Below are positions 1 through 58,943 of a stretch of DNA of 64,000 nt, piece after piece. The notes below the pieces were generated by a model that was given only the letters and a program-made list of their open reading frames with translations, did not search any database and was not told the DNA's origin. The stretch's first letter is position 1, and each line of letters opens with the position of its first letter. Source of the stretch: Blasia pusilla (taxonomy: Eukaryota); contig CM114271.1 in the NCBI GenBank assembly GCA_050084515.1, positions 39,122,001 to 39,186,000 of the forward strand, written 5' to 3'. The position numbers and the translations under genes were made by a program.

Positions 1-1445
1 CAGGCACGGAGGGCGATGGGAGAAGCGAGTGCGATGACTCCTATTGTTGATGCTCAGGAGGGACATGTGTCGAGCACATTGTTGGGGGCGGCCACCGTTG
101 TGTACCGCACTCCTTTATTTTCTTCTTCCGATGTTATGACATTGGGGGTACGCCCGCCGAGGCTTTTCGGCTGGCCGCGTCGCTATGTGAGCGCAGAGTC
201 GGAGTTCCTGCATCACGTTCAGAGGTGATTGCAGAGGAGGTGATGGACCTGCCCTTGGAGCGGATGCTCGGATCGTCCACGTCAGATTCATGGCAGGCTA
301 CGGCTGCTAGAATGGCGGAGATGCCTGCTAGACCCGCGATAGAGCGTGCCATGGCTTCTCCTGGTATTGTGTTGCTGGATATCTGAGGAGAGGTCTTGGT
401 GAGTCTTGGAGGTAGAGCTTTTAGTCGGCAGCGTGTCTTGTTGGATTCAGGACCGCAACCCCTGATGTTGGGGAAAGCATCATTCAGAGGATTGGGCTTG
501 ACGAGAGCCGATGTGGAGCGTTTTCCATTCCGGATACAGACATCCTTGGGTGGAGCGAGTACCACACAGTATATCACCCGACATGAGGTCGTGGTGAGGA
601 TTCGCTCGGGACATCCTACTGATGAGTCTGTGGTGCGCGCCAAGGCGATAGTGATTGATGTAGAGTCCTACGACGTCTTGGTTGGTGGAGCAGTGTTATA
701 CCCAATGGGGTTTTCCCTAGATTACTGGGAGAAGTCAACGTCCTACAGACCAGGATGGCAGTCAGGTGATGGGCGCCTTAGCTCATTACCCGTTCGATTC
801 ACAAGTGCAGTGATCGAGCAACGGCCAGGAGAGATGGCCACCTTAGCAGCATTTAGCAGTGCCATCACTTGGCCTAGTGATTTGATTGAGGGACATGTCC
901 ATGCAGAGGATACTCCCGTTCCTGACATTTCTATGGAAAGGAGTGTTATGGTAGGTGCATCATTCTATGGAGGAGAGGTGCTGATGTGGGGCTCGATTGA
1001 GGAGCTTCGACGATTGGCAGATGAGCACGTGCAGACCGCGTGGAGCGAGGCGTTTGCACCAAAACGTGACGGGTCTGAGGAACCGGAGGTAGCAGGGAGT
1101 GCAACGATGACACCCTTGGATACCACACCCATTGTGTGGTGTACCCCGGAGGAGGGTATTCAAGTGTTAGATCTCTTTGGAGGGATTAGCATCGGGTTAG
1201 CCGTTGTTTTGCACGTAGGAGTGCGAGTACAACAGTACCTGTATGTGGAGAGTGATGATGTTGCAAGGCGCGTCTCACTACGACATGTGGCGCAGTTACG
1301 CCTACGTTTTCCCGACTTTTTGTCTGCGTCCGCAGTATAGGGGTACCACAGTTCCCTACCGAGGGATATTTCGTTGTTGGGGGCGCAGGACTTAGAGCGG
1401 GTAGGGACCATTGATTTGGTCATTTCCGGTTGGCCATGTCAGGGC
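1..1445 (+). mobile_element. Decayed Ty3/gypsy-like LTR retrotransposon, copy A: gag-PR linker, aspartic protease and N-terminal half of a C5 cytosine DNA methyltransferase
   Basis: ORF 396-1340 carries the retroviral-type protease motif RVLLDSG...YDVLVG, then DNMT motif I (VLDLFGGI, ~1164-1187) and motif II (YLYVE). Reading through one TAG at 1338-1340 in the same frame gives LPRDIS...IDLVISGWPCQG (catalytic motif IV, PCQ at 1434-1442). Homology stops abruptly at ~1445. No LTR or RT is visible for this copy. Confidence 0.85.
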
Positions 1446-1596
1446 CGATTGAGTGATGGACGAGGATTTTGGTACTTTCTTTCCCTGAAAGTACCAAAAT
1501 AAACAATGTAAGAAGTACTAACAACACCTCCTCAAGAAATCAGATGATCAAAGTCACTTGATAGCCTTGGCCTAGGAAGTATAAATGAGTAGTGTC

Positions 1597-2112
1597 TCAG
1601 TCATCAGAGGACTCTTCAGATATCATATCTGAATATGAATTGATGGTCATGTCTTCTATAAGAGCAGATTGAGATGTTTTTGAAGCCACAACACTTTCTG
1701 CAATTGTAAGAGTAGTAGCACCCTCTAAAGATACTTCCACATTTTCTATATCTATACTTGAGTGAGGTCTAAATCCACATAAATCAAGTTGATCATAAGA
1801 ATCTTGGTCAAGACCACCACAAACCACTCTTCTACCTCGAGCTTGCTTTTCGAGCACTATTTTCCATCCTGGTTTTTCTTCCACATCTGCAAAGAAGACT
1901 TGCTCTACTTGACTAGGAAATACAAATGGCTCTTGTCCAAGAGGTAAGCACCTACAAAAATTTGCCAATAAAAACCCATGCTCATCAAGTACCATGCTTG
2001 GGTCACTACCATTCCATTGTGATTGGACCCACTTCCCCCTCATGAGGATCACTGGTTGGTCTCTAATACCATAGTCCAAAACCAAAATATTACTTAATAT
2101 CCCAACATAAGC

Positions 2113-2115
<3 letters not shown>
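1597..2115 (-). pseudogene. CACTA/En-Spm transposase C-terminal fragment (DUF4216-like)
   Basis: YVGILSNILVLDYG...KWV...DEHGFLLANF...EPFVFPSQVEQVFFAD...GWKIVL is the typical CACTA TnpD C-terminal signature. The N-terminal part is replaced by a (GA)n tract. Confidence 0.8.

Positions 2116-2174
<59 letters not shown>
2116..2174. repeat. (CT)n/(GA)n microsatellite
   Basis: Direct read; one single-base interruption. Confidence 0.98.
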
Positions 2175-3119
2175 GTGCCATTGATTCCATGGCAAAAAAG
2201 AGAAGCATACGCTTTACGTTACACGAGAGAAATGCGTTCACGTCTCACAAATGACCCGCAAATGCTATGGAGAAATTGAAGTAGTAAGGACGTGGGATGA
2301 TTTCAGATGCATTGACGGATCCCATCCTTGAAAATGAGGACCACCATGGTGAAGGTCTAGAGTAGTCTACTTCAACGTGGAAACAGGAAGCCACTGGAAC
2401 GTTGTTCTTCCTTGCCTTAACTTTTCGAATGATCCACCTCCATGCTCCATTTATCCTTCTGGCCGTGCTCCCGCCCACTCAATTCAACGACTCTGAACAC
2501 CTCCATGTCCCACTATCCTTCTGGCTGTGCTTGCGCCCACTCAATTCAGCTACTCTGAGCTTCGGAATCCTAGTTACCATAGCAGCCGCAACAAGATTCA
2601 GGTCAGCAATCCATCCTGAGATCCATCCCAGATTTCCGTTTTGGTTCCAAGGTACCAATCCATCTCACTCCCAAGTTTTCAACAAAGAAGCATTGAGTTT
2701 CAAGCAGACGATCAATCTCAGGTCTCAATGCAACAGATCCGCATGGAGTTTCAATTCAACTCAATTGGAATCCACTGTTGCTGCGTTGCCCACTCCACCT
2801 CAGCCTTGAAGCAATCTCGTCGGATAAAAGAGCATCTAAAGCTTGTGTTGATGCCGATACGCTGAGGACGATGTGTCTCAAGATTCTTCAACAACCTCAC
2901 TTCTAAAAAATGAATGAGGCTAGCGGAATTGAGAGCAAGAATACATGAGAGTAAACAATGGAGAGTGCATGAGAGTAGGGTTTTGCACGTAGGCTTTGTT
3001 GGGGGTCACGATGAGCCTCTTCTTTAAACTTGCACATATTTGACTCCCGCGTATCTCTACAGGGGTACCGGCCACTTGGATCTTCTCTTCTTTCTAGTTA
3101 TATCTTTTCGTTTCGGATT

Positions 3120-5150: not shown

Positions 5151-5792
5151 CTAAGAAGAGAGCAAGATTGTACTCATTTTAATCAATATTGCAGAACCTT
5201 TTTCATCGGTAGATATTTTTCTCATTGTACTTGTTTGTCTATGAATAAAACTTTCTTACCCAACCTATCTCAAGCGACAATCTGGACTTACGAAGCAGAA
5301 TTGAGATAGAGAGACCGGGAAAAAAATCCTAAGGGCAGAATAGTTGGAACTTTCAGCAGTCATGAAATATATCACATTACAATAATGTCAAGAGTTAGGC
5401 AAAGAAAGCAGGTTGCACATGGTTGAGACTTGTGTAATTTCTCATTCCTACAATACTACTGAATTTTGATTCACCACTTTGGAAGAGAGTCAATCAAAAT
5501 GCACAGGCAAACACTTCTCATTGCTTAACGAGGCACTCTAACTTGGCCAATTTTTGGCTATGTTTTGTCGACACACCTGAATCGCCCTTGTCTCAACTCT
5601 ACGTCTTAGACCATGAAGTATCCTTATACTAGATGCTACTTAATAATCTGAGTTCCTCTGCCAAAAGTGGTGTATTCAAGATCCGTATCCAAGAAAGACT
5701 CGCGTGATTTGGACATTCAAAGCCAAAAGGTTGGTCGTCATTGAGTTTGAATCGATCAAAAGAATTTGGCCTTCAAACACGGGTAATTGATG

Positions 5793-6004
<212 letters not shown>

Positions 6005-6439
6005 CTTGAAATCTTGACAACCACACATCTACATGTGTAATTTGAACTTGTTCACATAAACTTGGAACATGCTAAGGTTCTCGCATGTAAATATAATTCC
6101 ATACTTTCTCGCCATGCACTTGTGCCTTAGGACTTTCTCTATTTCTTGCTTGCATCTCTTGCATTCGTGATTCTCGTACTAGTTCCCCCGCTTTTCCTTG
6201 TCTTAGTCCTCCTGTGCTCTTGATGCCAAAACCCTAAAGAGAGAACGTTTGAATAATCAAAGTAGATTTTTTTTTATTACAGTTCAGTAATCTGAGATAG
6301 CTCGGTGATATGGCTTGCATTTGCGATCCTCTAGGTGCGACTTTGAATCCTAGAACCTTCATCTTTTTTGATAAATCATGTATAGTTATGTTGTTCATAA
6401 TTTGGCATGAATGCACTACCTTTGATGGGCATGAAAGGT

Positions 6440-8010: not shown

Positions 8011-8508
8011 TGCATGTTTTACATTTGATGACTTTTGTCTTTTTATTCTTTTCCATATTTTCCAAAATTCAGATCAAGGAATGTTCTAAAAATCCTCTTT
8101 GATGAGGAGGTAGTTGTTATGAATTATTTCCTTTTTGTCTCTATAAAGACATTTGTATGGTTTGAATTGTTATTAGAGTAGCCATATCCCAGATTTGGGC
8201 TTGAGTAGAAGTTACAAGTTTGAGAAGATATGATAATCTGATGCCTTGTAGTCCAAAGTGCTTAGTGTGAAAAGTTCTGAATGATTTTATATCCTTATTT
8301 GTTACCTCCTATAGGCCAACTATGCCAAGATTTGGATGGGGAGTATGAATTGACCAATGTCCTTTTAAAGGAAAAAATGTTAATAATTACAAGTGTTATA
8401 ACCACACATATGACTACCCAACAAGAGACATACAAATATATGACTGAAACAATCATATTAAATGACTCTAATATATGCCCATGACTACCAGAATCATAAA
8501 AATGACTA

Positions 8509-8904
8509 TGGGATGAGCAAGCACATACATTGTAACAATGGTGGAACCCAAAGCCGATGAGCGAGAACGAGCTATGGGATTCTCTACAGGTATGACGGAG
8601 GTGCCTTATGATGGTAGAGACATCCCACAGACACATATTGGATGAGGCTATGGACCTGAACTATCTTACTTGGGTGTTCAGTCTTGGTTTAGCTAAGTAG
8701 AGACGAATGCGAGAGGCGTGTGTGACATTAGTACATTACGTCCATCTTGCAGCGCAGCGTCTATCGGGACAGGTGAGACACTGGCTAGGGGTGCAATGGT
8801 AATGGGGAGGCATCCATGGACTCCATGGGATATGTCATGAGAGCACAGAGAGATGGGAGTTCACTTCGCTGATGCAGGACATAGTGGAGTGCCTAGAGAG
8901 TTGG
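8509..8904 (+). mobile_element. C-terminal part of the retrotransposon DNA methyltransferase (motifs IX-X); inverted piece of copy B
   Basis: WDEQAHT/MVEPKADERERAMGFSTGMT...RHILDEAMDLNYLTWV matches C5-MTase motif IX (E.ER.MGFP..yT) and motif X (lG.am), with frameshifts. Confidence 0.75.
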
Positions 8905-9900
8905 CACTAGAAGAAATCATGTAATATATGACTAGACTCAGTAAATGGTGGTAAATGATTGAGTGTGGCTCATTACCATTATAGTCATATCAACCAATAT
9001 ATATGACTAATGAGTCGGCATATATTGACACGCTGGCATCTTACGTGGCAATATGACTTCCACCTAGTTCGACACGTGTAATGACTAAGTCATAAAATCC
9101 TACACCATGATGACTAGGATGCAGTTGAACAAATGTTTGACTTACACGTGTCTCCATCCAAAATTGACATGTGGATTAAATGCAAGGTTACATATGGACA
9201 AAGTCCATGTCCGTGGACATATCCATGTCCATGTCCGTCCTATGGAAGGACTTGTCTATATGGGTCACACCTTTCCCTTCTTTCTCCTTCCCCTTACTTG
9301 CCTTCGTGTTCCATATTCCCCCGTTTCTTCCTCCCTCCACCTCCACTCCCTCCTCCCTCATTGCTCCGCTCATCCTTGCCTTGCCTTCCATCATGGGCTA
9401 TAAGTGTGGGTCCCTCCTCTTGGAACCCATGTCCGTCTTAAGGAAGGACTTGTCCATTTTTGTACAACCATGATTAAATGACTCAATCGTATATTCCATG
9501 TCAGATGATGACTAGGATTTTCATAGACAAACCATAAATTGCCATGTGGTATCTAATAATTACGTGACACGTGAAGGAAATGATCGAGTCGTATGTGCAG
9601 ACGAGGATTTTATTAAAACATGTATTTCTTTGACACGTGTCCCTTATTGAATATACCAGTAACTTGTAAAGTAATACGTATAACTCTGTCACTCATATGC
9701 ATGACTATGGTAGTTATATGTGGAACTCTGCCAGTCATACGCATTACTATGGTAGTCATATGTATGACTCTATCAGTCATATGCATGACCTCGAGAAGTC
9801 GCATCTATAACTCTACAAGTCATATGCATGAATGTGGAAGTCGCATGTATAACTCTGTGAGTCATATGCATACCTCGGCCAATCATACCAATAACTTTGT
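8905..9900 (+). mobile_element. CACTA end: TIR plus subterminal ATGACT-N5-AGTCAT repeats, inside the inverted segment
   Basis: CACTAGAAGAAATCATG at 8905, many ATGACT/AGTCAT motifs, and ~42-bp tandem units at 9660-9890. Interrupted by a MITE. Confidence 0.75.
9183..9472. mobile_element. hAT-type MITE with perfect 8-bp TSD
   Basis: TIRs caaggttacatatggacaaagtcc / ggacttgtccatttttgtacaaccatg; TSD attaaatg at 9175-9182 and 9473-9480. Confidence 0.9.
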
Positions 9901-12760
9901 TATCATGCCTTGTCCTCCTTGAAAAAAAACATGAGTTGACAGAAAACTCACAAATGTAGGGAATGTTGCCTTGTGCTGGCCAACCAGATTGGCCACTGCC
10001 AACAATGGTACATCATCACGAGTAACAACATGAGATTTCCGCACTGAATCCAACATCGCATCCACTGTAAGTAGTGATGGTCTCTAGACTCCATCATAAG
10101 CCCACCTCAGCAACTCGGATGGTAAAAGGTTCGTCCATCACAATCATGGACGGTGTGCGCGCGATCCAACACTCGCCGCATCCAACATCACCGTCGGTCC
10201 TATCCACGATCACACCTGATGTACACTCGCCATCACTTAGGCTCGAATATCACCTAACAATGGGAATTTCTCCAAAATGTAGGCCGAAGAACATCGTTGG
10301 GTAGTCTGCAAGTATCGAAGAACTCGCAACATCTCCCAAAATATGGCTGACCTCGGGTCTTGCAAACCAAGTCCCTGACCCGTCGAAGAATGATCCTGAC
10401 ATGGCCACCTTGCCACCACCAAGTGTATCACACCAACCCTATCTAGATCAAGTGCCCCCAACAACGAAATGTCGCTCATCAATACATGCTAATATCCCCT
10501 AACTACAAACATTGGCAATAACTCATGATACTGCTGGACTAGTCTCGACACATGATGTAATGAGACTCTACGTGTAGTCTCATCTCTCTCAACATACAAG
10601 TATTTTTTTGTACTCATACTCTGGCCTACGATACTGTATCTAACACTTTTCTAATCCCTCCAAAGAAATCTACTATACGTACACCCTCCTCTGGATACTG
10701 CCACACGATCATTGTGGTGTCCAAGGGTGTCAACGTATCCACTCCTAGAGCACGTGGTAACTCTATCCCTTCTCGCTCTAGAGCATAGGCTCGGATCCAC
10801 GCCTGCCTCACTAGCTCATCTGCTCTCCTTTCCAAATCGATGCTCGTTCCCCACAAAGCTAAAGAAGTATTGCCAATAGATGTAGCCATGCTCGTCATCG
10901 CATGACACTCCTCAGGCCTATCCTCTACAAGAATATCCTATGCATTGGCATTCCCCTCTAGTAAAATTTCTTGGCCAACATAATGTGCCACAATAAGCAG
11001 CAACTGTTGTGGTCGACTCTCGAAGTGAACCATCAAGTCTTCCTGCATACTGCACGTACGGGTAGCTGACTGGCTCGTCCCTCACTTGATTTCCAACCTA
11101 GTCCATAGGAGGCTGTCTCCTCCCAAAAGTCAATTTTGAACCCTAGAGTATACAATATGGTAGCCCCTACCAAAACTTCATAAGACTCGGTCGGTGGCAC
11201 AACCGCTCGCGTCCGCACCATTACACTATCCATAGAATGATCAAGCCGAATCCTCACTGCAATCTCATCGCGAGTCATGAAGTGTGTCGGGGATGTGCCT
11301 CCCAATGAAGTATGAATCTAGAATGGACATGGAGTAATCTCACACTTCCGCAATCCCATTGCTACACATGCCGCCTTCCCCAACATAAGGGGTTGTGCTC
11401 CTGAAATCAACTAGCACACGCTGCGGTTGATACACAACTCTGGATGGACCAACCAGCTAGAAAACTCCATCTCGGTTGTGCAAGACAACAACTCCTGGTG
11501 AGACGACAACACGCTCTATTGCTAGTCTAGTTGGCAACTCCGCCACTCTAGCCGCTGCTACATGCCAACTCTTTGTGGCCCTCGTCCTTAGCATATGCTC
11601 TAAGGGTCCATCAACTACATCTCCTGTGCAAGTCTCAACACAGGAAGAACCAAACTCATTGCTCTCAGAGAGCATCACCGCCAATCGGAAAACATCAGCT
11701 AGTCAACCTCCACATGTCAACAAATCTCTAGCCGCAAATAATGGGACCCTAGACAAATCCGTCGCCATCGCTTGTAACTTGCCAGTGCTAGGCCATGTCG
11801 AATGTTGCATAGGCCTTGTAGACGTACTCACCTCATGCGCTCCTCTAAGTGCATCGGCAACTGCAACAATAACACTCCTCAAAGGTCGTCTAGGGACCAT
11901 CGATGGGGTCCAAAGAGCCTCTCACAATGTAAAAGACTGGGGAAGTCTAGCTAGCCTACATGCTTCTCCCCTCTGGGCATCCAACTCCACATCGGATCCT
12001 TGTGGCTTAGAAGCTCTCACCGTGCTTCTCATAATCACTGCATCTGCATCCACCTATGAGGTGTTGCAAAAAAATCCCATACCTCCTAGATCTCCCGCCA
12101 TATCCTGACCTTGAGCAAATTTGGAAGTCAATGCGCCCATTGCACCTAATGTAGATGCTTGCTCGGCCATCATAGCCTGAAGGTGTTGCTCCAATTGAGC
12201 AGTCCTCGCCAAAGTTTCCTCTGATGCAAGTGTTGCACTCGCTTTGGCAGGTGGTAGGGTCCTGAATCCACCACGTCCTCGACCTCCGTCCTGTGCCACC
12301 TCTAGGTCCTCGACCTCCGTATAGGCGCAGCTCGGGGTGGAGCTCGAAACATCTCTCACGTGTGTGCCCATATCTTTGGCAATGATCACACAAAGGTAAG
12401 GGTGGCCTCCCTTGGGCCTCCTCATATACAGCTAATGGTGATGCTTGCACTCCACTCTGATGTCTACAATCTCGCTGACAATGTGATCGTCCAGCCCACG
12501 CTGCCCAACAAGAAATACCGAGCCCTCGGCCCCATAACTCTGTAGTGTGCAAAGATATGAGATAAACTCGTGGTGTCTCCCTCAAAGTGGCGCCTATTGT
12601 CAAAACTCTCTCCTCAAGTATGTTGAGCTCCTACGCTCCGCCAACAAAAATACTGATTTGAGAGTAGGCAAACCAACATGTAAGAGAGTTGCATCTTGCA
12701 CTCTCTTCCGCAACTCAGCGGTCTAGCATCGCATACCTAAATGAAGAGATAGGCCCTCAA
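9901..12760 (-). mobile_element. Decayed Ty3/gypsy-like LTR retrotransposon, copy B: gag (CCHC), aspartic protease and C5 DNA methyltransferase motifs I-VIII
   Basis: Gag remnant ELRKRVQDATL...PTLKSVFLLAER and zinc knuckle CDHCQRYGHTRERC. Protease RVLVD/SGAQPLMLG (frameshifted) and YEVLVG. DNMT: IVDFFGGI (I), LVVARWPCQDHS (IV), GLQDPRSAIFWE...AYILEK (VI), LDAASVGSRAHRP*L*WTN (VIII), then FPTFVSF...GGQGMI. Colinear and homologous with copy A. Confidence 0.85.
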
Positions 12761-12849
12761 GACTCTCTCCTGAGAGACCTGGAGAGAGACCAAGCACTAG
12801 CAAGGGCCTAAGAGGTCCTCAGAGCCAGATGAGTGTCTCCAGTCTTCAC

Positions 12850-13790
12850 ACTAAGAATTTAGCAATCTGAAGCTGATTCCGCCTAGCCATGAATGTGGGG
12901 ACCTTGGGAAGCAGGGTGATCAAAGAGATCCGGGAAGTCAAGCCTAATATGACTGTGAAAGGTGCAGTCGAAGAGGTAATGATGTTCATCATCAATAAGC
13001 CTCGAGTTGCAAAATCTACATAATCTGTCCTCCCTTTTCTTAAGTGAGAATTTTCCTTTCTGAATCTCAAGGTCACTTGAGCCACATCTGAATCTCGCTA
13101 ATGTATGACGTAACTTAGTGGGAGTGGGGGCAGAGATATAAGAGGCTTGCTACACGGATCTGTAGGTGTTCATGAGGGTGTGGTAGCGCCTCATTCTTTC
13201 ACCATTTTTGTGAGATGTATTCCCCCTGCTTTCACAGAGACGCTGGTGTCGGCCCCAATTGATGGCAATGTAATTGCTGTGTAATTGTTCAGCAAGGTCC
13301 TGGTGGATGGCCATAGGTAGGTCGTCGATGGAGATTCCCCATTCCACAAGTCACTCCTTGCAATCATAGTACCAGTTTTTAGCCCCAAGGGTGACAATAC
13401 TTTTTGAAATCACATAGGCCGTGGCGGATAGACAATTGGGATCGTCCTCAAAGATATCCTCAAGGTGTTGGAGAAATGTGATCAGATTTTTAACATCATG
13501 GATCTCAATTGGGACCTCCCCAAACTCAGCCACTATAATTTCTTGGGGAGTGGTTTTCCTAATGCCCAAACTTTGACGCATGAAGACTTTATGGGGACCT
13601 CAAGGCCCTCGGGCCACAAGAAGGTGAATGGACTGTTGTATTTCCTACATGGCCAGGGCATCACATCAGAAGTAAAGAGCCCTGTTTTTCTCCATACCAT
13701 TCATCCTTCATTGGAATATGGTGCATCAATGTGGGATGCCAACACCAAACAAAGATACAGGTTTGAAGCTTCCTCACGAACAACCAGAGT
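12850..13790 (-). mobile_element. Non-LTR retrotransposon (RTE/RTEX-like LINE) ORF2 C-terminal fragment
   Basis: LGIRKTTPQEIIVAEFGEVPIE (post-RT region) and the CCHC finger REDRLCRFCNSRLIDDEHHYLFDC at ~12961-13035; frameshifted. Confidence 0.75.
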
Positions 13791-14099
13791 TAGTGGGAGA
13801 TCAGAACTTGGAGAGGAACCCCTGGAGGATCAACATGATATTGCAAAGTAGAAATGGCGGAGGCACCTCTAGGCAATGGATTCTCATCCCTATCCTAAAG
13901 CAGCGGTGGGAAAATTTTGGACCCAAAGAAGCTCAGTAAAGCCAAATCTTGGACAAAAAGGTTTCAAGAGATTGTGCAAGCAACCAAGGTCTAGGGGGGC
14001 CTAAATAGTGGGAGCAAGATGAGAAACCCACTTCTTTGGTTATGGTATCCAAAAATTGTTAATCATAACCAAAAAAGTATCCAAAAGCTCACAGTAGAA

Positions 14100-14680
14100 C
14101 AGCAAAGAGGAGACCATGAAATTGGTTTCTCTCTTGATTGTATATCTTGTGCAAGCAAAACTGGAGAACTATTCATGGGGAACCCCTTGCTTGGGAACCT
14201 ATCTTAAGTTCAAGTTTAGGACATGAACCTTGAATCACAAGAAAAGTAGGATGGGAACGCAAGTAAATTGTTGCAGCTTGTGTGATGATGGGGATGATAT
14301 CTCTAGTCACTATGTGATCTCCTACAAAAATTCATAACACAGAGCAAGGGCACATGCTGATATTGCTAAGTTGGTAACAGATTCAACAAACTAGATTCAC
14401 TGCCCAAAGTTGTTGCACTGGTAATTTTTTTGTATTGAGGATCCCAATCAGGTAAGATAGATGATGTCATAAAGAGCTCTCTGGTTGACACTTGGAATCT
14501 CCTCAACACTACTCTATATGGGCGGCACCCACACTATATGAGAGTGTCTCCCTCCTCTCATATGGTATCTTCGTCATTTCTTCCTCTTTCTACACCTATC
14601 TCAATATCAAGCACTGTCCAAACAAGGCATGGAGTCTATGGTCACGAGGCTAGTGACTATCGCTACTTAACAAGTATAAT
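14100..14680 (+). mobile_element. LINE 3' end remnant, same family as 4040-5150
   Basis: LKFKFRT*TLNHKKSR...CCSLCDDGDDISSHY...DSLPKVV...VIKSSLVDTW plus the shared 3' motif; clear nucleotide similarity to 4125-4680. Confidence 0.6.
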
Positions 14681-25973: not shown

Positions 25974-28900
25974 CAGGGTTCGGGAAGTTTTTTTTATTTG
26001 TCGGCCCAATACCGGGAAATGTCAAATTTCCCGGGTATTTTTTTTATACCGGCGGCGACCGGAAACCTTTTCAGTTACTGGTTTTTTCCCGAACTTTTTT
26101 CCCGGGCAGTTTAAATCTGGCAGGAATGTTTTTCCTTTCGGTCTATTTCTGATATTATTTTTTTCCAGCCACATTTCTGCCAACTTTTTTTGGCCTAGCC
26201 ACATTTCCGGTTCCATTTAAGCAACTTCAATTGCTTTTTTTTGTCACTAACATGAAGTTTCCTTCAAGTCTCCCCGGTACTCAACTTCCCAACCCTTTTC
26301 TCTGTCAGTAACTTCAAGTTTCCCTGGTACCCAACTTCCCAACCCTTTTCCCTTGGTTTCATTTCAGGTAACTCCTACTTCCAACTTCCTAACTTCCTAG
26401 TTCCTACATCATCATCCTTGGCAGGAGTTGAACCTGGCAAGCCTCCCACCCAGCCAAAGATCCTAAATTCCTAATTCCCTACAAAGGATTTTATCCTCAT
26501 CCTTGGCAGGAGTTGAACATGATTTCTCTCCCACCAGTTGGGAGCCAAGGATCCTACCCCTCTAGAATACTTGGAGCCTCACTGCTCCAAGCATTCTAGA
26601 AGGGTCCAACTCCTACTTCCTAAAATACAAAGGCTAAGATGTATCAGCAGCTTCCTCTTCCACAGCTTGGGAGACATATCTATGTGGATTTGCAAACAAG
26701 TACCTAAAATGAGCAGAATTCTTCCACAAGACCATAGACTCAGACAATATATCCTCATAATCAGAGGACGATCCTTCCAAGGCAATCCTCAAAATTGCAT
26801 CCAAGTACTTGGTGGTCAACTTGTTACGAGATTTAGTCTTGATCATATTGTGAATGGAAAATGCTCTCTCACTTATGGCAGTACTAACACACTGGACCCT
26901 AGCTACATTTGCCAAAATCAACAACTTAGAAAATTTACATTGTAGAGAGGGACTCCAACTCACCATAGCCCACAAGTCTCTGGAGTTGCGATCCTTCCAC
27001 TCAGTGGTAGCCATCAATTTGAAAGACTGAAACTCTTGCTTTATAAGTGGAGAATTAATGATTGCAGGTTGTAACTGACCTTGCAATGGCAACTGGGCTC
27101 CGAAAAAACCACACAAATCATCTAAATCTTTACATCCCCAGCTACTGAATCCCACTTGCCGTGATGGCATGTGCAAAGGATTAAGGATTTTCATTGCACC
27201 AACGAGGTTGTTGTCTCGAAATCAATCATGTAAAGCTGCACACACACTTTCAGCAAACCTTTTCTGAAAGAACAAGGCACCCTCTGAGTCACTTCCTGTC
27301 TGATCCCGAGACATACATATGCTATGAAATTTGTTTCCCCTGATCTAAGACTGTAAACGACGAAGATAACCACCAGGTGGCCCAAAGTCAAGAAGTATAT
27401 GGTAACATGTTTCTTCAAAGAAGGTTGAAGCATTCAATTCATGAGTTTCCATCACAAAATTCATGCTTATCCTAGCTACCTCAGAATTGACAATGCTCCC
27501 AATTGTGCTAACATCTACAAACTGGTACTGAAATATCTTACTCAAACTAGCAAGCATGGAAAGAATGTCAGCCAAAAATTATAATTGATAGATCATTTGG
27601 AATGATCTCAACTTGTTAAACAAGTTGGCAGCATTCCCATCATCCTCTGAAGAAGATATATCTCTGAAGTACGTTTTTACCGATTCTTAAGAATCACACA
27701 ATGTGGTCACAGCTTGCCAACGGGATAACCATCGAACCTTGTGGTATCTCTTCATGACTCGCTAGGGGTCATTGAATTTTTCTTGCAAGGATAACAAGAT
27801 TGTTTTCCTCTTGGAGGACCTTCTAAAGTAGCTAGCTACAGCATTGAGAATCCAGTCAACTTCAGAGGAGATTGACTTACAATCAGGAGCTTTGGCAGTT
27901 GATAAAGCGGCCAAATTTATTCTATGGACTACACAATGAATTGAAAGAATGTAGGGATTTACCTTCTGCCTCAATTGAGAGGCTACCCCTGTCTGGCTAT
28001 CTACCATTGTTGAGGCACCGTCAGAACCAAATGCAACCATTTTGGAGAATTCCAATCCTCCATCTTTCAGTAGTTGCAAAAAAAATTTGGTAATAGCATT
28101 AGATTATTTTGATTCGCAATGAATTAATCCTAGAAAACAGGATTTTTCTTGGCCCTCTTCAATGAAAGTAGTGAACATGACCAGATGCCCTGTTATGGAT
28201 ATGTCAATCGACTCATCGATCAAAATTCCAAAGAAAGGAGAGGCTTGAACTCTAGCAAGACTTCTACTAAGTAGGACTTGGCTAATGAAATAAGACATTT
28301 CACTGCAACTCTTCTCATCTTGGTATAGGTCTTTGGTAATGGGATCATTAATAGAGACTAACAACTTACAAAGACTGGAGAATTTGATAAATGGGATAGC
28401 CTCCTTCGCAAGGAAGTATGCACATTTAAACAATGTCATCAGAGCGGCTTCGCAGGTTCGATTGGTTGTGGCAATAGCCTTGGCCATGGACTTCTTACCC
28501 CCATTTTGCAGCCCATGCAAGCTTGATATGCTCATTAGACTTGGCATGATCAGTAAAGGCTGAAAACTTACAATTAATTGTACCATCCCTGGCAAAGACA
28601 CTCTTCCCCTTCCCCTTCCTACGAACTTTACAAAAGATTCTACCAAGGTCAAGAATCAAATTCAATCCAATCATACATTGAGTACCATACATCCTTCCAT
28701 GCAACACAAACTTTCTTAGGTAAAGCCCCAATCCTTCCTGATGGAGTTTGCTCTTCTTTTTCATCAGAAGAGCCAGATAATAAGATAATGTCTGGCCCTT
28801 TCTTTCCTTGTTCCTTACGTAGGAAAGCGGTCATAGTTTTTTGTCTCTTTGCCATCCTTGATCCGATACTCCGAGAATCCGAGGGAGACCAATGTCTCCA

Positions 28901-45052: not shown

Positions 45053-47856
45053 CCTTGCCGATTAATCATTCAATTTCCGCACCACACACGAAGGTTCGAG
45101 GATGGGTTTCCCATTAAGAATTCATATATATGTATTATTATAACATAAAATTATAAAATAAAATGATATTACTATAGTACGACTTACAAGTATTTACAAT
45201 ATAAAACAATTCACCCTAATATTGTGTGCGAATCGGCGCGATGTGTCGGGTCCACTCGAGAGTATCCTTCTACTTCGTTGACTTAATACCAACCGAATAA
45301 AAGACGAAATTTTCCCCCACGCAGACACCACATGTGACTTGTTTTGCCACTTGATAAATAATGACCTTAAGGGACCGTGCGATCCACGGATCCCTTGTTG
45401 ATAGTTCAAGTTTAAACGCACCTCTCCTTACCAATCTTTATACGACCCCTTAAATGACCTAAAGTATTTGTCAAAGAAGTCCAATGACACGTACCCCCCA
45501 AAATAGCCAGACGACATGACATATCCTCTGGCTCGATCTTTTCTTCAGCAACTGCGAGGAAAGAAGGAAAGTGGGAGCTAATCTTTTCTGGTCTCGTTGT
45601 AGCCTTCAGGTTTCGACTCTTTGTACTTCCGATGGGTTTTCCATCACACGTTTTTTTCGAAGTGCATCATTATAAAAAAGCTAATCGCGCAGAAGGAGTG
45701 GGACGGAACATGAGACCCCAACGGACTGGGAGAGATTCCTCCAGAGCCTCCTTCATTATCTTGTCTACGTCTGCGAAAAACCGCTACATCTGCCAGAAAC
45801 ATGTGCCGATCAGTTCCTCTCGACTCGCGATCTCCCGATCGTGCACTACCTCCGATCCACTTCATTCAGAATGCCGATGCGATGGACTGACTCGAATCTC
45901 CTGATCGCCCTCCGATCCGCGCTCTCGCTACCAGAAGCAGGAGACAATACGAAGCGCTTCGGTCTTCCGTATTCTCTCGCGCTCAGGGCTCCATACAACC
46001 GATTTCCGTGATCTTGCCTTTCGGTGATCCTCACTCAATGTGTCCGGGCAATAACTCACGCCGTACATTCTCTCTCTGTCAGGATATCGTAAACGAGTCC
46101 AAACATATCGTATCGTACCCACAAATAACAATAATTCTGTCAGTCGGTGGCGGGGCTCAGTCCTCAGGAGTCTCGCAGTCTCACTGCGAAATTCACTCTT
46201 GCTATTCCTCATTATACATACACTCGTCACTTTTCGTCTTCTCATCTAGAGGTTAATCGAAGGGGGAGATCTTGGCTTTCGAGTAAATTTATGTGGTCAC
46301 GATAAAAAATTTCTCGAAAACATTTTCTTCTTGCATTCTTGAATACTCTTCTTTTGAGTTGTTATTATCTTTTTTTTCCTCTTCTCAAATTTCTTTTATA
46401 ATAAAGTGGATATATTTTTCTCTCTCAAAACTGTTGTCCATAGATGAGTTATTTCTTTGCAGATAATATCTGTGAAAGTTGTCTCGTAAGCCTAAACATG
46501 GCACCGGTGGTAGATTTCCCTTAAATAACATCCCCGTTAACCACAAGGGCTCTTAAGTGGACAGGTGTCAACAAAAGAATAGCCAAAAAGAAGGATAGAT
46601 GTTAACATTTGAAGAAGATCCTGTGTAATACTCATATATATTACAATTTCTGGCTGTAAGATACCCATATTATATAACGGTTATGGGGAAAAACTCCATT
46701 GACCCCCTGGGTACAAGTATCTAATTTCCGTGCATAAGCATCCACGTTGAGTTTAGATTGTTCTTCACCATTGAAGTTGATGTTAGGCCTTCAGCTTTGG
46801 CGGATTCATCATTACTGCTGGTTATTATCTATACGACTAGTTGGTGCCGTGCCATTCAAAATAGTGTATAATTTTGAATTATTCATCCAAAGTGTACAAT
46901 TTAATTTGAGCTATTCAATTGGCTTAAAAAATCAGTGATTCTATTGGTTGAAAAGGCATATGTCAAGAGGAGAGGTAATTTCAAAATGAAGAGGCACTCT
47001 CCAATAGTAAGATACATTATTGGGATTACCTCCTCTTTTAGTTTAACTCTAAATAGTCGCAAAGTATCTTGGATTTTGGGTTAGGTGAGTGTCCTCTTCT
47101 TATCGGGTTTCGTTCTAAATAAATTCCATAGTCCATTTGATTTGAGAAGCTTTCATAAATGAAAAAAAAGAATGGTGACTGATTTTTTTAAGTGTGAAAT
47201 TTTTGCAACATTAATATTTAAGGTGTTTGGTGCTCATTCGCATTGTAGGCAAGTTTTCAATAAGTTTGAAACGAGTGTCAAAAGATTAATCACAAGAAAA
47301 ATATTTATAGATAATTCTTAGTATCCTACTAACCAAAAAAAAAATGAATGCACAATTTAGTTACTTAGGATATGACATGGCTCTCTAGTTTGAAGCCTCC
47401 TTTATTAAATGAAAAAAAGCCTCACATCTTTAGAATATATGTTGTCAAGATAGTAAGGCTCTTCATGTGAATGGAAGTTCACACTCACTTAAAGAAGTGA
47501 AGCTTTCAAGAAGGTTTTTTTACATATACCATTAGATTTTATGAAAATCGATTGAGTGCATCTCACGGGCGGGAAAATATAGTATTATTTTGGGTAGATG
47601 CTTGTGGAGGAAACTCCATTTTAGACCTTAGAACCCAATGTATTTAAGGGCTACTGTTAATCTCCATTGAACTTCAATAACCGTTTCATGTAATGCTTCT
47701 TTTCTTTTCTTTCCAAGGTGTTGGAAGGTGATAGGACTATTCCATAGGAACCTCTTGTGAGAGTTATTTTTTTCATCTCTTTTTCTTTGGCGAGGAGTGA
47801 AAGTGGGAAGTTCTCCTCTAGGGAACTTTTCTTGTAACTTTTGCAAGTGTTAAGGG

Positions 47857-48165
47857 CAAGGTTTCATGTGGACAAAGTCAATGTCCGTGGACTTATGTGC
47901 GTCCTATGGAAGGACTTGTCCGTATGGGCCCCACCTTCCACTTCTTTCTCATTCCCCTTACTTGCCTTCGTGTTCCATAGTCCCCCGTTTCTTCCTCCCT
48001 TCACCTCCACTCCCTCCTCCCTCATTGCTCCCCTCATCCTTGCCTTGCCTTCCATCATGGACTAAAAGTGTGGGTCCCACCTCTTGGAACCCATGTCCGT
48101 GGACATGTCCAGACTTGTACGTTCATGTTTTTCCTAAGGAAGGACTTGTCAGTTTTTTGTCCTTG
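47857..48165. mobile_element. hAT-type MITE, same subfamily as 9183-9472
   Basis: Near-identical pyrimidine-rich interior (cttacttgccttcgtgttccata...cctccctcattgctcc). The right TIR is eroded and no TSD is recognisable. Confidence 0.8.
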
Positions 48166-57548: not shown

Positions 57549-58943
57549 ATGAGCAGAATGAGCGGTATCAGATGGTCTCTTACGTTGATGTGCACCTTCT
57601 CTATGTGCACAATAGGCGTCCTCGGTAATGTTCCGGGAGTTCCCATCGGATGGAAGGCCTCGCACGCAACCTTCTACGGAGGTTCTAATGCCGAAGGCAC
57701 CATGGGTAAGCACACGTTCTGATGCTTGTTGAGCGAAGGAAGCGATTAAGCCATTCCCGTCCTGGTCTCCCAGTAGTTCGAACATGATATCATAATCCAG
57801 TGCACTTGAGTTACACATATTCAGAGTGAAAGAGTGTACCAGTAATCTTCGAGGTATGACTTGCGCTTTAGGGCGATCAATCATCAGTGAGGAATGGTGA
57901 AGTTGACTCTGCACGTTTGTACAGGTGGAGCTTGTGGATATGGAAACCTGTACAACACTGGATACGGCTTGCAAACAGCAGCCCTCAGTTCGACGCTATT
58001 CAACAATGGTTTGACCTGCGGAGCTTGCTTCGAGATGTACTGCAATTACCAGATGGAACCCCGTTGGTGCTACAAAGCTCGTCCTCACATCAAAGTGACG
58101 GCCACCAACTTGTGCCCAGCTAACTGGAACAGACCCACAAACAGGGGAGGTTGGTGCAACCCTCCCAGAACTCACTTCGATTTGCCTCAGGCCATGTTCA
58201 CTCGAATGGCGAGATATGTCGGCGGAATCGTCCCCGTCGTTTACAGAAGGTACCTATCGATTGCAGTCCAATTAAATCCACTCATCTGTGCTCAAGTTTC
58301 TCCTCGACATCGTGTACGTTCTGAGTTGGTCTCATCTACATCCACAATACTGCTCTCGCTCCATCGTAGGTTGATTTTAGTAACGTGCTTTACGAGCCAA
58401 AAATCTTTCTATGAAGGGAAACTTCAACGAGTTCGAAAGAGTGCATATATATGGGACTTAGTTTGAGTTGTTGTATTCATGAGCGGTGCTACCAGAGCTC
58501 TCACTCGAACTGACATGGAGTGCCAGGATGAATCTGAATATCTAGCATAGACTAACGAAATTGTGGAACTTCAAGTCGAAAATTTCAAAGATACAGTCTC
58601 ATTGAATTTGCTGGTCGTTGGCGATGGCAGAGTTCCGTGTGTGAAGGAAGGAGGAGTGAAGTTTAGCATGAGCGGCAACCCATGGTTCAACTTGATCCTC
58701 ATTAGCAACGTCGCGGGACCGGGAGATATCAGGACCGTGCACATAAAGGGATCCAAGTCGACCCGATGGTTGGCCATGAGGCAGAATTGGGGCCAGATGT
58801 GGGAGGCTAAAGCGAAGTTCCAGGGCCAATCGCTCTCATTCCGACTCACCTCAGGAAGCGGGAGAGTCCTCATCCTCTACAACGCCGTCCCGAAATGGTG
58901 GACGTTTGGGTCCACGTACCAGGCCAGAACCAACTGGAAATAG
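57549..58943 (+). CDS. EXPA: Alpha-expansin, 264 aa; exons 57549-57705, 57925-58249, 58631-58943
   Basis: Signal-peptide-like N-terminus, then [60 protein letters not shown], and C-terminal NVAGPGD...M.QNWGQMW...GQSLSFRLT...W.FG.TY. GT-AG introns fall at the two conserved EXPA positions and the frame closes (795 nt). Confidence 0.96.

Follow-up and report, generated by a model that had tools for sequence, protein, structure and literature searches.

Probable remnants of a Ty3/Gypsy retrotransposon lineage with its own DNMT3-type methyltransferase in the liverwort Blasia pusilla

Within a 64,000-nucleotide (nt) stretch of the Blasia pusilla genome (GenBank assembly GCA_050084515.1, contig CM114271.1, positions 39,122,001 to 39,186,000), the whole of which we refer to as the window, lie two coding fragments, copy A on the plus strand and copy B on the minus strand, in each of which gag sequence is followed by an aspartic protease, a linker and part of a C5 cytosine DNA methyltransferase (DNMT). 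Our findings make it very probable that both are broken, dead fragments of a plant lineage of Ty3/Gypsy long terminal repeat (LTR) retrotransposons that carries its own DNMT3-type C5 cytosine methyltransferase in its first open reading frame (ORF). They are the fragments of two independent, long-dead insertions, and the locus itself is inert. The element is of a known kind (Gypsy-DNMT3), and what is new is the host group, a liverwort and land plant. The original prediction for this DNA, made from the letters alone, had described copy B as a second, diverged copy of a gag-protease-DNMT3 fusion; it overlooked the second frame of the complete element (ORF2, encoding reverse transcriptase, RNase H, integrase and a PHD finger), the published precedent and the fact that both copies are dead.

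Anatomy of copies A and B

The main stretch of copy B runs from gag with a CCHC zinc knuckle to DNMT motif VIII, and its continuation, with motifs IX and X, lies on the opposite strand (Table 1). Three-frame translation and motif searches found all of the motifs named for copy B, its inverted piece and copy A where they had been predicted. Damage was counted by frameshift-aware alignment to P0207, the closest intact relative, an ORF of 827 amino acids (aa) from an ENA assembly with all motifs. Against this guide the main stretch (12008-9901) covers aa 2-692 at 50.7% identity with 13 in-frame stops and 4 frameshifts, and over copy B as a whole the count is 14 in-frame stops and 6 frameshifts, to which a private inversion is added. 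Eight of the 13 stops fall in the DNMT part, which ends abruptly at 9901, and the protease part has stops at 11459 and 11320. Four of the 13 stand opposite an arginine of the guide (three TGA, one TAA), and a fifth, TGA, stands opposite a tryptophan. The knuckle region is matched by P0028 and by the first frame (ORF1) of the relative L001 (tblastn), and in copy B the N-terminal portion of gag is missing, as is any 5' LTR. Its catalytic motifs are altered as well, and judging by these motifs copy B itself is not catalytically competent, because EKF stands for ENV, the motif-X glycine has become D and stops lie inside motif VIII.

Where the two halves of copy B should meet, the main stretch stops at P0207 aa 692 and the plus-strand piece starts at aa 700, with 7 codons lost at the junction. 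The inverted piece (8538-8834) covers aa 700-797 at 58.3% identity with 1 stop and 2 frameshifts, and homology of its tail to the relative L009 reaches 8894. A single inversion of approximately 8538-9900, together with the loss of the 7 codons, would account for this layout, in which the DNMT is split between motifs VIII and IX. The inversion break is private to copy B, because both DNMT parts are colinear in L011, L012 and L013 and because 247 whole-genome shotgun (WGS) reads that match from 8539 on leave copy B before 8539 into one consensus, which in the frame of the following codons reads LVWDDQVQR, the canonical sequence preceding LVEP in P0207. For motif X, the string IG*GYGPE read in frame 1 of the inverted piece was discarded in favour of ILDEAMD, which lies in the following frame and is the one that aligns.

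Copy A begins with the end of gag, its upstream part being cut off by the start of the window, and covers aa 64-535 of P0207 at 55.9% identity. It carries 2 in-frame stops, at 384 (TGA) and 1338 (TAG), and 1 frameshift at 154, and it contains a 317-aa ORF at 387-1340. A first alignment guided by L001 had placed 2 frameshifts and 2 stops in its linker; this was an artefact, since the linker is open within that ORF, and the damage was recounted against P0207. Directly 3' of motif IV copy A ends, and an ORF of a DUF4216-type transposon then begins. The two copies are colinear yet diverged, as had been claimed for them, with a protein identity of about 45-50% and a tblastn E value of 5e-57 for the pieces of copy A against copy B, a likeness that chance cannot account for.

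No homology to reverse transcriptase, RNase H or integrase was found anywhere in the 64-kb window by tblastn with these domains of L001, L012 and L013 (E<1), and none of the 608 high-scoring segment pairs obtained with 208 family proteins fell outside copies A and B. Direct LTR-like repeats flanking either copy were likewise absent from a repeat search around copy B and over the whole window. The description of copy B as near-complete thus stands for the order of gag, protease and DNMT and fails for the rest, given 14 stops, 6 frameshifts, 7 lost codons and the lack of reverse transcriptase, RNase H, integrase and LTR. We regard the window copies as fragments of Ty3/Gypsy elements and not as complete members, because the protease is present and the three enzymes and the LTRs, both of which occur in relatives, are absent from the window.

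Table 1. Features of the window, with positions counted from its first letter
Feature	Position	Strand	Remarks
Copy A	46-1466	+	gag end, protease, linker, DNMT motif I to IV
A, protease LLDSGPQPL	438-464	+	
A, GWQSGDGR	753-776	+	
A, PLDTTPIVW	1113-1139	+	
A, motif I LDLFGGI	1167-1187	+	
A, motif IV GWPCQG	1428-1445	+	
DUF4216-containing ORF	1597-2244	-	Pfam E 4.8e-5, under cutoff; adjoins truncation of A
B, inverted continuation	8538-8894	+	motifs IX and X and ORF1 tail
B, motif IX ERERAMGF	8559-8582	+	
B, motif X ILDEAMD	8635-8655	+	reached after a 1-nt frameshift
Non-family DNA between halves of B	8895-9900	.	inside the inverted segment
High-copy short repeat	9176-9471, also 47850-48100		two window copies 88-93% alike
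21/42-nt tandem array	9637-9896		adjoins the inversion break
B, main stretch	12630-9901	-	gag (CCHC), protease, linker, DNMT motifs I-VIII
B, gag remnant	12630-12007	-	207-aa open frame
B, CCHC zinc knuckle CDHCQRYGHTRERC	12390-12349	-	inside the 207-aa ORF, upstream of the protease
B, aspartic protease	11434-11054	-	relatives score Pfam gag-asp_proteas / Asp_protease_2 here
B, protease D-S-G	11420-11375	-	D and SG separated by a 1-nt frameshift at 11405
B, linker between protease and DNMT	11053-10728	-	poorly conserved; 2 frameshifts, 1 stop
B, DNMT part	10727-9901	-	motifs I, IV, VI, VIII and most of the target-recognition region
B, PLDTTMIVW	10727-10701	-	
B, motif I VDFFGGI	10673-10653	-	
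B, motif IV RWPCQ	10410-10396	-	
B, motif VI YILEKF	10281-10264	-	
B, motif VIII AHRP*L*WTN	10158-10129	-	
hAT dimerisation-domain ORF	26634-27221	-	Pfam E 3e-4, just under cutoff
Expansin exon	57891-58466	+	Pfam DPBB_1 E 3e-19

The family, its complete element and its methyltransferase

A HMMER search of representative sequences with the 317-aa ORF of copy A returned 375 proteins at E<=1e-3, the long ones of which carry CCHC, aspartic protease and DNA_methylase without reverse transcriptase. Where a source is named it is Closterium, Coleochaete, Marchantia polymorpha or Calypogeia fissa, and every such entry is annotated as hypothetical or unnamed, with Mp_3g12620 of Marchantia and CAM6085511.1 of Calypogeia as annotated liverwort fragments; a scan of metagenome contigs added 52 loci. 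Gag and/or protease share one open frame with the DNMT in L001 ORF1, P0005, P0073 and P0207, and the protease precedes the DNMT, colinear on one strand, in both copy B (minus) and copy A (plus). The claim that these copies belong to a transposable element family, and do not represent a one-off fusion, is borne out by the 375 proteins, by the same domain order in intact polyproteins and by a WGS depth over copy B about 100-fold above that of the locus itself.

The relatives also reveal what follows the DNMT. In L001 and L003, ORF1 (gag-protease-DNMT) closes at a TAG and ORF2 begins with the next codon, scoring RVT_1, RT_RNaseH, Integrase_H2C2, rve and PHD, and the junction in L002 is the same (TAG at L001:5083-5085, L002:2081-2083 and L003:4661-4663). 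All three intact loci have the stop in the context TAG-CAG-TTA or TAG-CAA-TCA, which presumably corresponds to the leaky-stop context CAR-YYA known from plant viruses. At this junction L013 carries a stop before QPMASS, and in L009 a tyrosine codon is found. P0168, P0171 and P0172 are fused single polyproteins with protease, DNMT, reverse transcriptase, RNase H and integrase, with CCHC in P0171 and P0172 only and PHD in P0168; Pfam zf-CCHC scores in P0073, P0171 and P0172. Among the family loci, 12 extend for 500 nt or more beyond the DNMT, and in 11 of them ORF2-like sequence follows on the same strand. Direct LTR-like repeats, each at least 344 nt long, lie 8.76 kb apart with 91-92% likeness and enclose the gag-to-integrase region of L013 (6666-7009 and 15424-15766), and no terminal repeats were found on the L001 and L003 contigs, which perhaps end inside the element. 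Read from these sequences, the complete element is an LTR retrotransposon of the Ty3/Gypsy type in which a DNMT has been inserted between protease and reverse transcriptase, and gag-protease-DNMT forms its first half.

A PHD finger lies at the C terminus of the integrase (L001:8053-8187 and the ends of P0168 and of the L007 ORF, Pfam E 6e-11 to 2e-7), at the position where chromoviruses have a chromodomain. A second arrangement was seen in the metagenome contig L007 (2-7915), one 2638-aa ORF with a DNMT module between RNase H and integrase and the PHD finger at its end. Over 329 residues, the DNMT-like part of L007 shares 39% identity with P0005; it has WECQ as motif IV and escapes the Pfam DNA_methylase model. 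A search with it found 111 long pol proteins (including P0329-P0436), and the named ones belong to the chlorophytes Scenedesmus, Haematococcus, Monoraphidium, Cymbomonas, Enallax and Hariotina. The Gypsy-DNMT-PHD lineage therefore seems, on these matches, to span the green lineage with the module in two positions.

The original prediction had assigned the DNMT to the DNMT3 kind from motif VIII, and the class comparison agrees with this. In an alignment of seven family domains, F-x-G-x-G, C-Q (preceded by P or E), E-N, R-x-R, E-R-E-R and L-G are invariant, and the motif order I, IV, VI, VIII, IX, X is non-permuted, an order that the window copies keep. The profile of these seven domains, whose alignment spans motifs I-VIII and IX-X, was compared with all PDB sequences and matched DNMT3A/B/C best (29 sequences, E 3.6e-20 to 3e-16), ahead of DRM (6.6e-11 to 6e-10), HaeIII (3.6e-8), HhaI (about 7e-8) and DNMT2 (about 3e-4), with no match to DNMT1 among all PDB sequences at E<=10. 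With the L001 domain alone, 29 distinct DNMT3A/B/C chains again came first (7e-8 to 2e-5), followed by HaeIII, HhaI and DRM. By profile matches, the family DNMT is nearer to DNMT3 than to other DNMT classes. Cellular DNMT3A, DNMT3B and DNMT3C, plant DNMT3 and DRM resemble the family in fold and give the best profile matches. DNMT3 and the family have the motif order I-IV-VI-VIII-IX-X in common, and the family motif VIII, AHRPRxxWTN, resembles AHRARYFWGN of DNMT3, whereas the order is rearranged in DRM. Unlike cellular DNMT3, the family DNMT has no PWWP, ADD or plant companion domain and is embedded in a Gag-Pol polyprotein, and in the alignment to 2qrv_A more residues (about 87, against 62) separate the aligned stretch ending at motif VIII from the one beginning at motif IX.

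It had further been claimed that the DNMT was kept under selection while the element retrotransposed. We compared copies A and B by the Nei-Gojobori method on 397 codon pairs taken from tblastn alignments, and obtained ratios of nonsynonymous to synonymous substitution rates (dN/dS) of about 0.27 for the DNMT part (92 codons; proportions of nonsynonymous and synonymous differences, pN and pS, 0.284 and 0.622), about 0.24 for the protease part (204 codons, pN 0.335, pS 0.684) and about 0.59 for the linker (101 codons), values to be read with pS near saturation, pairs picked by protein similarity and both copies having drifted since their death. Identity between the two DNMT parts by codon position is 0.65/0.76/0.50. 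In one segment pS reached 0.76, which leaves dS undefined, and intact relatives were therefore also compared. Over 325 DNMT codons each, dN/dS is 0.131 for L001 versus L002 (dS 0.259) and 0.114 for L001 versus L003, as low as in the protease (0.115) and lower than in linker and tail (0.37-0.54). The ratio over the DNMT part is thus not near 1, and these codon comparisons show the DNMT to be under purifying selection in the family.

Copy number and expression were assessed with one WGS run and three RNA runs from the same organism, mapped at a likeness of at least 80%. Among 10322 mapped WGS reads, 46 were at least 99% alike, a depth of about 0.8x that represents the locus itself, and 7476 were less than 90% alike; depth over the main stretch of copy B averaged about 107 (range 29-225). 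This suggests about 100 copy-equivalents of the family in the genome, an estimate that misses subfamilies as distant as copy A. The depth of paralogous reads ends at about 8894-8910. Differences between these reads and copy B (8500-12700) are mostly transitions (C>T 308, G>A 260, T>C 200 and A>G 190), with 36-78 for each transversion. The excess of transitions, like the TGA stops opposite arginine, is what deamination of methylated CpG would be expected to leave behind in silenced repeats.

RNA depth of 1-8 was found over 9753-11157, with the first mate almost only on the plus strand, which is the sense of copy B under the usual stranded protocol. No RNA fell on the gag bins 11439-12281 in the three runs, and bin 12282-12562 reached only 0.32 in one run. 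Reads matching copy B have 13-20 mismatches each and, because of these mismatches, must come from other family members and not from copy B. The search for active copies that had been proposed thus yields low-level transcripts of relatives and none from copy B.

Precedents, alternative accounts and a possible life cycle

The nearest published system is KnitGypsy-Dnmt3 of Klebsormidium nitens, for which the main text of de Mendoza et al. (2018, Nat Commun 9:1341, PMC5890265) describes intronless Dnmt3-type domains in a Gypsy Pol ORF, Ka/Ks below 0.2, a DIRS-like repeat structure and multiple, silenced copies. The likeness to our family lies in an intronless, non-rearranged Dnmt3-type DNMT, the Gypsy composition of the element and a streptophyte host, and purifying selection (0.11-0.13 in the intact relatives) and multiple, silenced copies are common to both. 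The differences are that the host of KnitGypsy-Dnmt3 is a charophyte alga and that of the window a land plant, and that its repeats are DIRS-like, whereas L013, the one relative with terminal repeats, has ordinary direct LTR-like ones. The term PHD does not occur in that main text, nor does it mention a stop between DNMT and reverse transcriptase, both of which are present in our relatives. No protein named as from K. nitens was among the named database matches, most matches being unnamed.

Other retrotransposons have likewise captured cytosine DNMTs. According to the same text, SymbioDIRS-Dnmt3 of Symbiodinium carries a Dnmt3-type DNMT whose de novo activity on CG has been proven in yeast; it and SymbioLINE-Dnmt have other backbones (tyrosine-recombinase DIRS and long interspersed nuclear element, LINE) in another host kingdom, and the authors call the acquisitions independent (PMC5890265). 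EpiLTRs, as presented in a recent preprint (bioRxiv 10.64898/2026.05.21.726589), resemble our family, as do chromoviruses, in being of Ty3/Gypsy type with chromatin or DNA-methylation modules beside the integrase. The DNMT of EpiLTRs, a sister of DNMT4, is found at the 3' end of pol, where an adenine methylase and a chromodomain accompany it, whereas the family DNMT is DNMT3-like and lies between protease and reverse transcriptase, and at the end of the integrase a PHD finger stands in place of a chromodomain. That 2026 preprint names "streptophytes (Gypsy-DNMT3)" (10.64898/2026.05.21.726589), and a 2025 paper (PMC12344493) cites de Mendoza et al. 2018. A full-text literature search, with subscription journals and supplements outside its coverage, found no report of a DNMT-bearing retrotransposon from a liverwort or other land plant.

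Several observations weigh against reading copies A and B as remnants of Gypsy-DNMT3 elements. LTR, primer-binding site and target-site duplication were found for neither window copy, and their mode of insertion is for this reason taken from relatives only. At E<=1, Pfam recognised no family in the 317-aa ORF of copy A or in the gag and protease pieces of copy B; one of eight ORF pieces from the window scored (the motif IV-VI piece, 10237-10488, with DNA_methylase at E 2e-5 and 24.7 bits against a cutoff of 22) and none of the other seven. The strandedness of the RNA libraries is assumed. The comparison with KnitGypsy-Dnmt3 covers its published description, so that the same acquisition is not implied. 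Methyltransferase activity is not known to have been shown for Gypsy-DNMT3 elements, and the yeast test of the K. nitens domain was inconclusive (PMC5890265). Finally, L004, 1 of the 12 loci, is without ORF2 after the DNMT, and homology of copy B ends about 15 codons before the position of the ORF1 stop in relatives.

The last two points would also fit a different account, in which copies A and B belong to a non-autonomous, ORF1-only (gag-protease-DNMT) derivative family that is mobilised in trans by full-length relatives. The account draws further on the lack of ORF2 sequence in either window copy, on the end of the paralogous WGS depth so close to the ORF1 stop position and on the many database gene models that consist of gag-protease-DNMT alone. 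These gene models, however, are explained by the in-frame TAG, as ORF2 comes directly next in L001-L003 and is present in 11 of the 12 loci. Moreover, copy A is cut inside the DNMT and not at the end of ORF1, no 3' LTR follows 8894, and copy B, which also lacks the gag N terminus and both LTRs, looks like a generally eroded fragment. We consider an ORF1-only family improbable, and retain the reading of both copies as remnants of ordinary DNMT-bearing Ty3/Gypsy elements.

Purifying selection on the DNMT of relatives, and liverwort fragments annotated as hypothetical proteins, might alternatively point to a domesticated host gene, that is, to a gag-protease-DNMT frame exapted as a de novo methyltransferase. 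Neither window copy looks like such a gene, as copy B has its 14 stops and 6 frameshifts, one of them in the protease active site, and copy A has 2 stops and 1 frameshift. The family is multi-copy, with most reads less than 90% alike, its intact relatives are complete retrotransposons, and no single-copy, intact, syntenic orthologue with introns, as a domesticated gene would have in liverwort genomes, was seen in this analysis. Domestication is thus very hard to reconcile with the locus, and we hold it to be highly improbable. That copies A and B are two arms of one segmental (inverted) duplication, for which their opposite orientation about 8.4 kb apart and an 83-nt inverted match (71%; 1361-1443 versus 10395-10477) could be cited, is almost beyond belief, as nucleotide similarity is confined to three coding patches of 46-201 nt (71-85%) with unrelated flanks, protein identity per segment is only 33-58% (tblastn), each copy is nearer to P0207 than to the other, their stop positions differ and WGS reads indicate about 100 further copies. 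A duplication that includes host flanks, named beforehand as an outcome that would speak against a family, is therefore not what lies here, and copies A and B represent old, separate subfamilies of the Ty3/Gypsy lineage.

Our results lead us to speculate on how an intact element of this lineage might work. An LTR-driven transcript would be translated to Gag-protease-DNMT, with read-through of the TAG giving the full polyprotein, and the protease would free the parts. The DNMT may be made in Gag-like amounts, because it lies upstream of the TAG, provided that the TAG context is leaky, and its putative activity could then methylate the element's own cDNA or new insertions, which is what de Mendoza et al. 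2018 hypothesise (PMC5890265). The PHD finger may possibly guide integration. Neither copy A nor copy B is capable of such a life cycle: copy B has lost the N-terminal gag, the LTRs and ORF2, has its DNMT split by the inversion and carries stops and frameshifts, and in copy A another transposon cuts off everything that would follow motif IV.

Retrotransposons that carry a DNMT have so far been named from one charophyte (Klebsormidium nitens) and from dinoflagellates, and with this locus and its relatives the DNMT3-bearing Gypsy lineage now reaches into the land plants. It is conceivable, although we think the opposite considerably more likely, that a land plant, here a liverwort, still carries transcribed and possibly intact Gypsy-DNMT3-PHD elements, members of an old family of chlorophytes, charophytes and bryophytes, whose DNMT, encoded ahead of a leaky UAG and so produced at about the level of Gag, is active and shapes escape from or mimicry of host methylation. 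Copies A and B themselves add nothing functional. Liverworts offer tractable genetics and published methylomes, and if an intact, expressed liverwort copy exists, it becomes testable how a transposon profits from carrying a de novo methyltransferase.

Other features of the window

Beside the gag remnant of copy B lies a repeat (12563-14500) with RNA depth of about 100-400 on both strands in all three runs and WGS depth of about 160-220. Its ORFs (12883-13851) matched no Pfam family, and on a CxxC...H....C motif it may possibly be a LINE. Within the non-family DNA that separates the halves of copy B, WGS depth rises to about 760 over 9191-9471, against 4-14 beside it and about 0.8 for unique sequence; this short repeat (9176-9471, with its second window copy at 47850-48100) is weakly transcribed and is a very high-copy small element.

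Farther along the window are the hAT and expansin features listed in Table 1, and the expansin exon (57891-58300) shares 87% identity with an expansin of Marchantia polymorpha and 71-72% with those of Riccia and M. paleacea. As the one clear host gene considered, it points from sequence to a liverwort-like land plant as host. Long (GA)n microsatellites occupy 5756-6040 (about 285 nt) and approximately 2100-2160.

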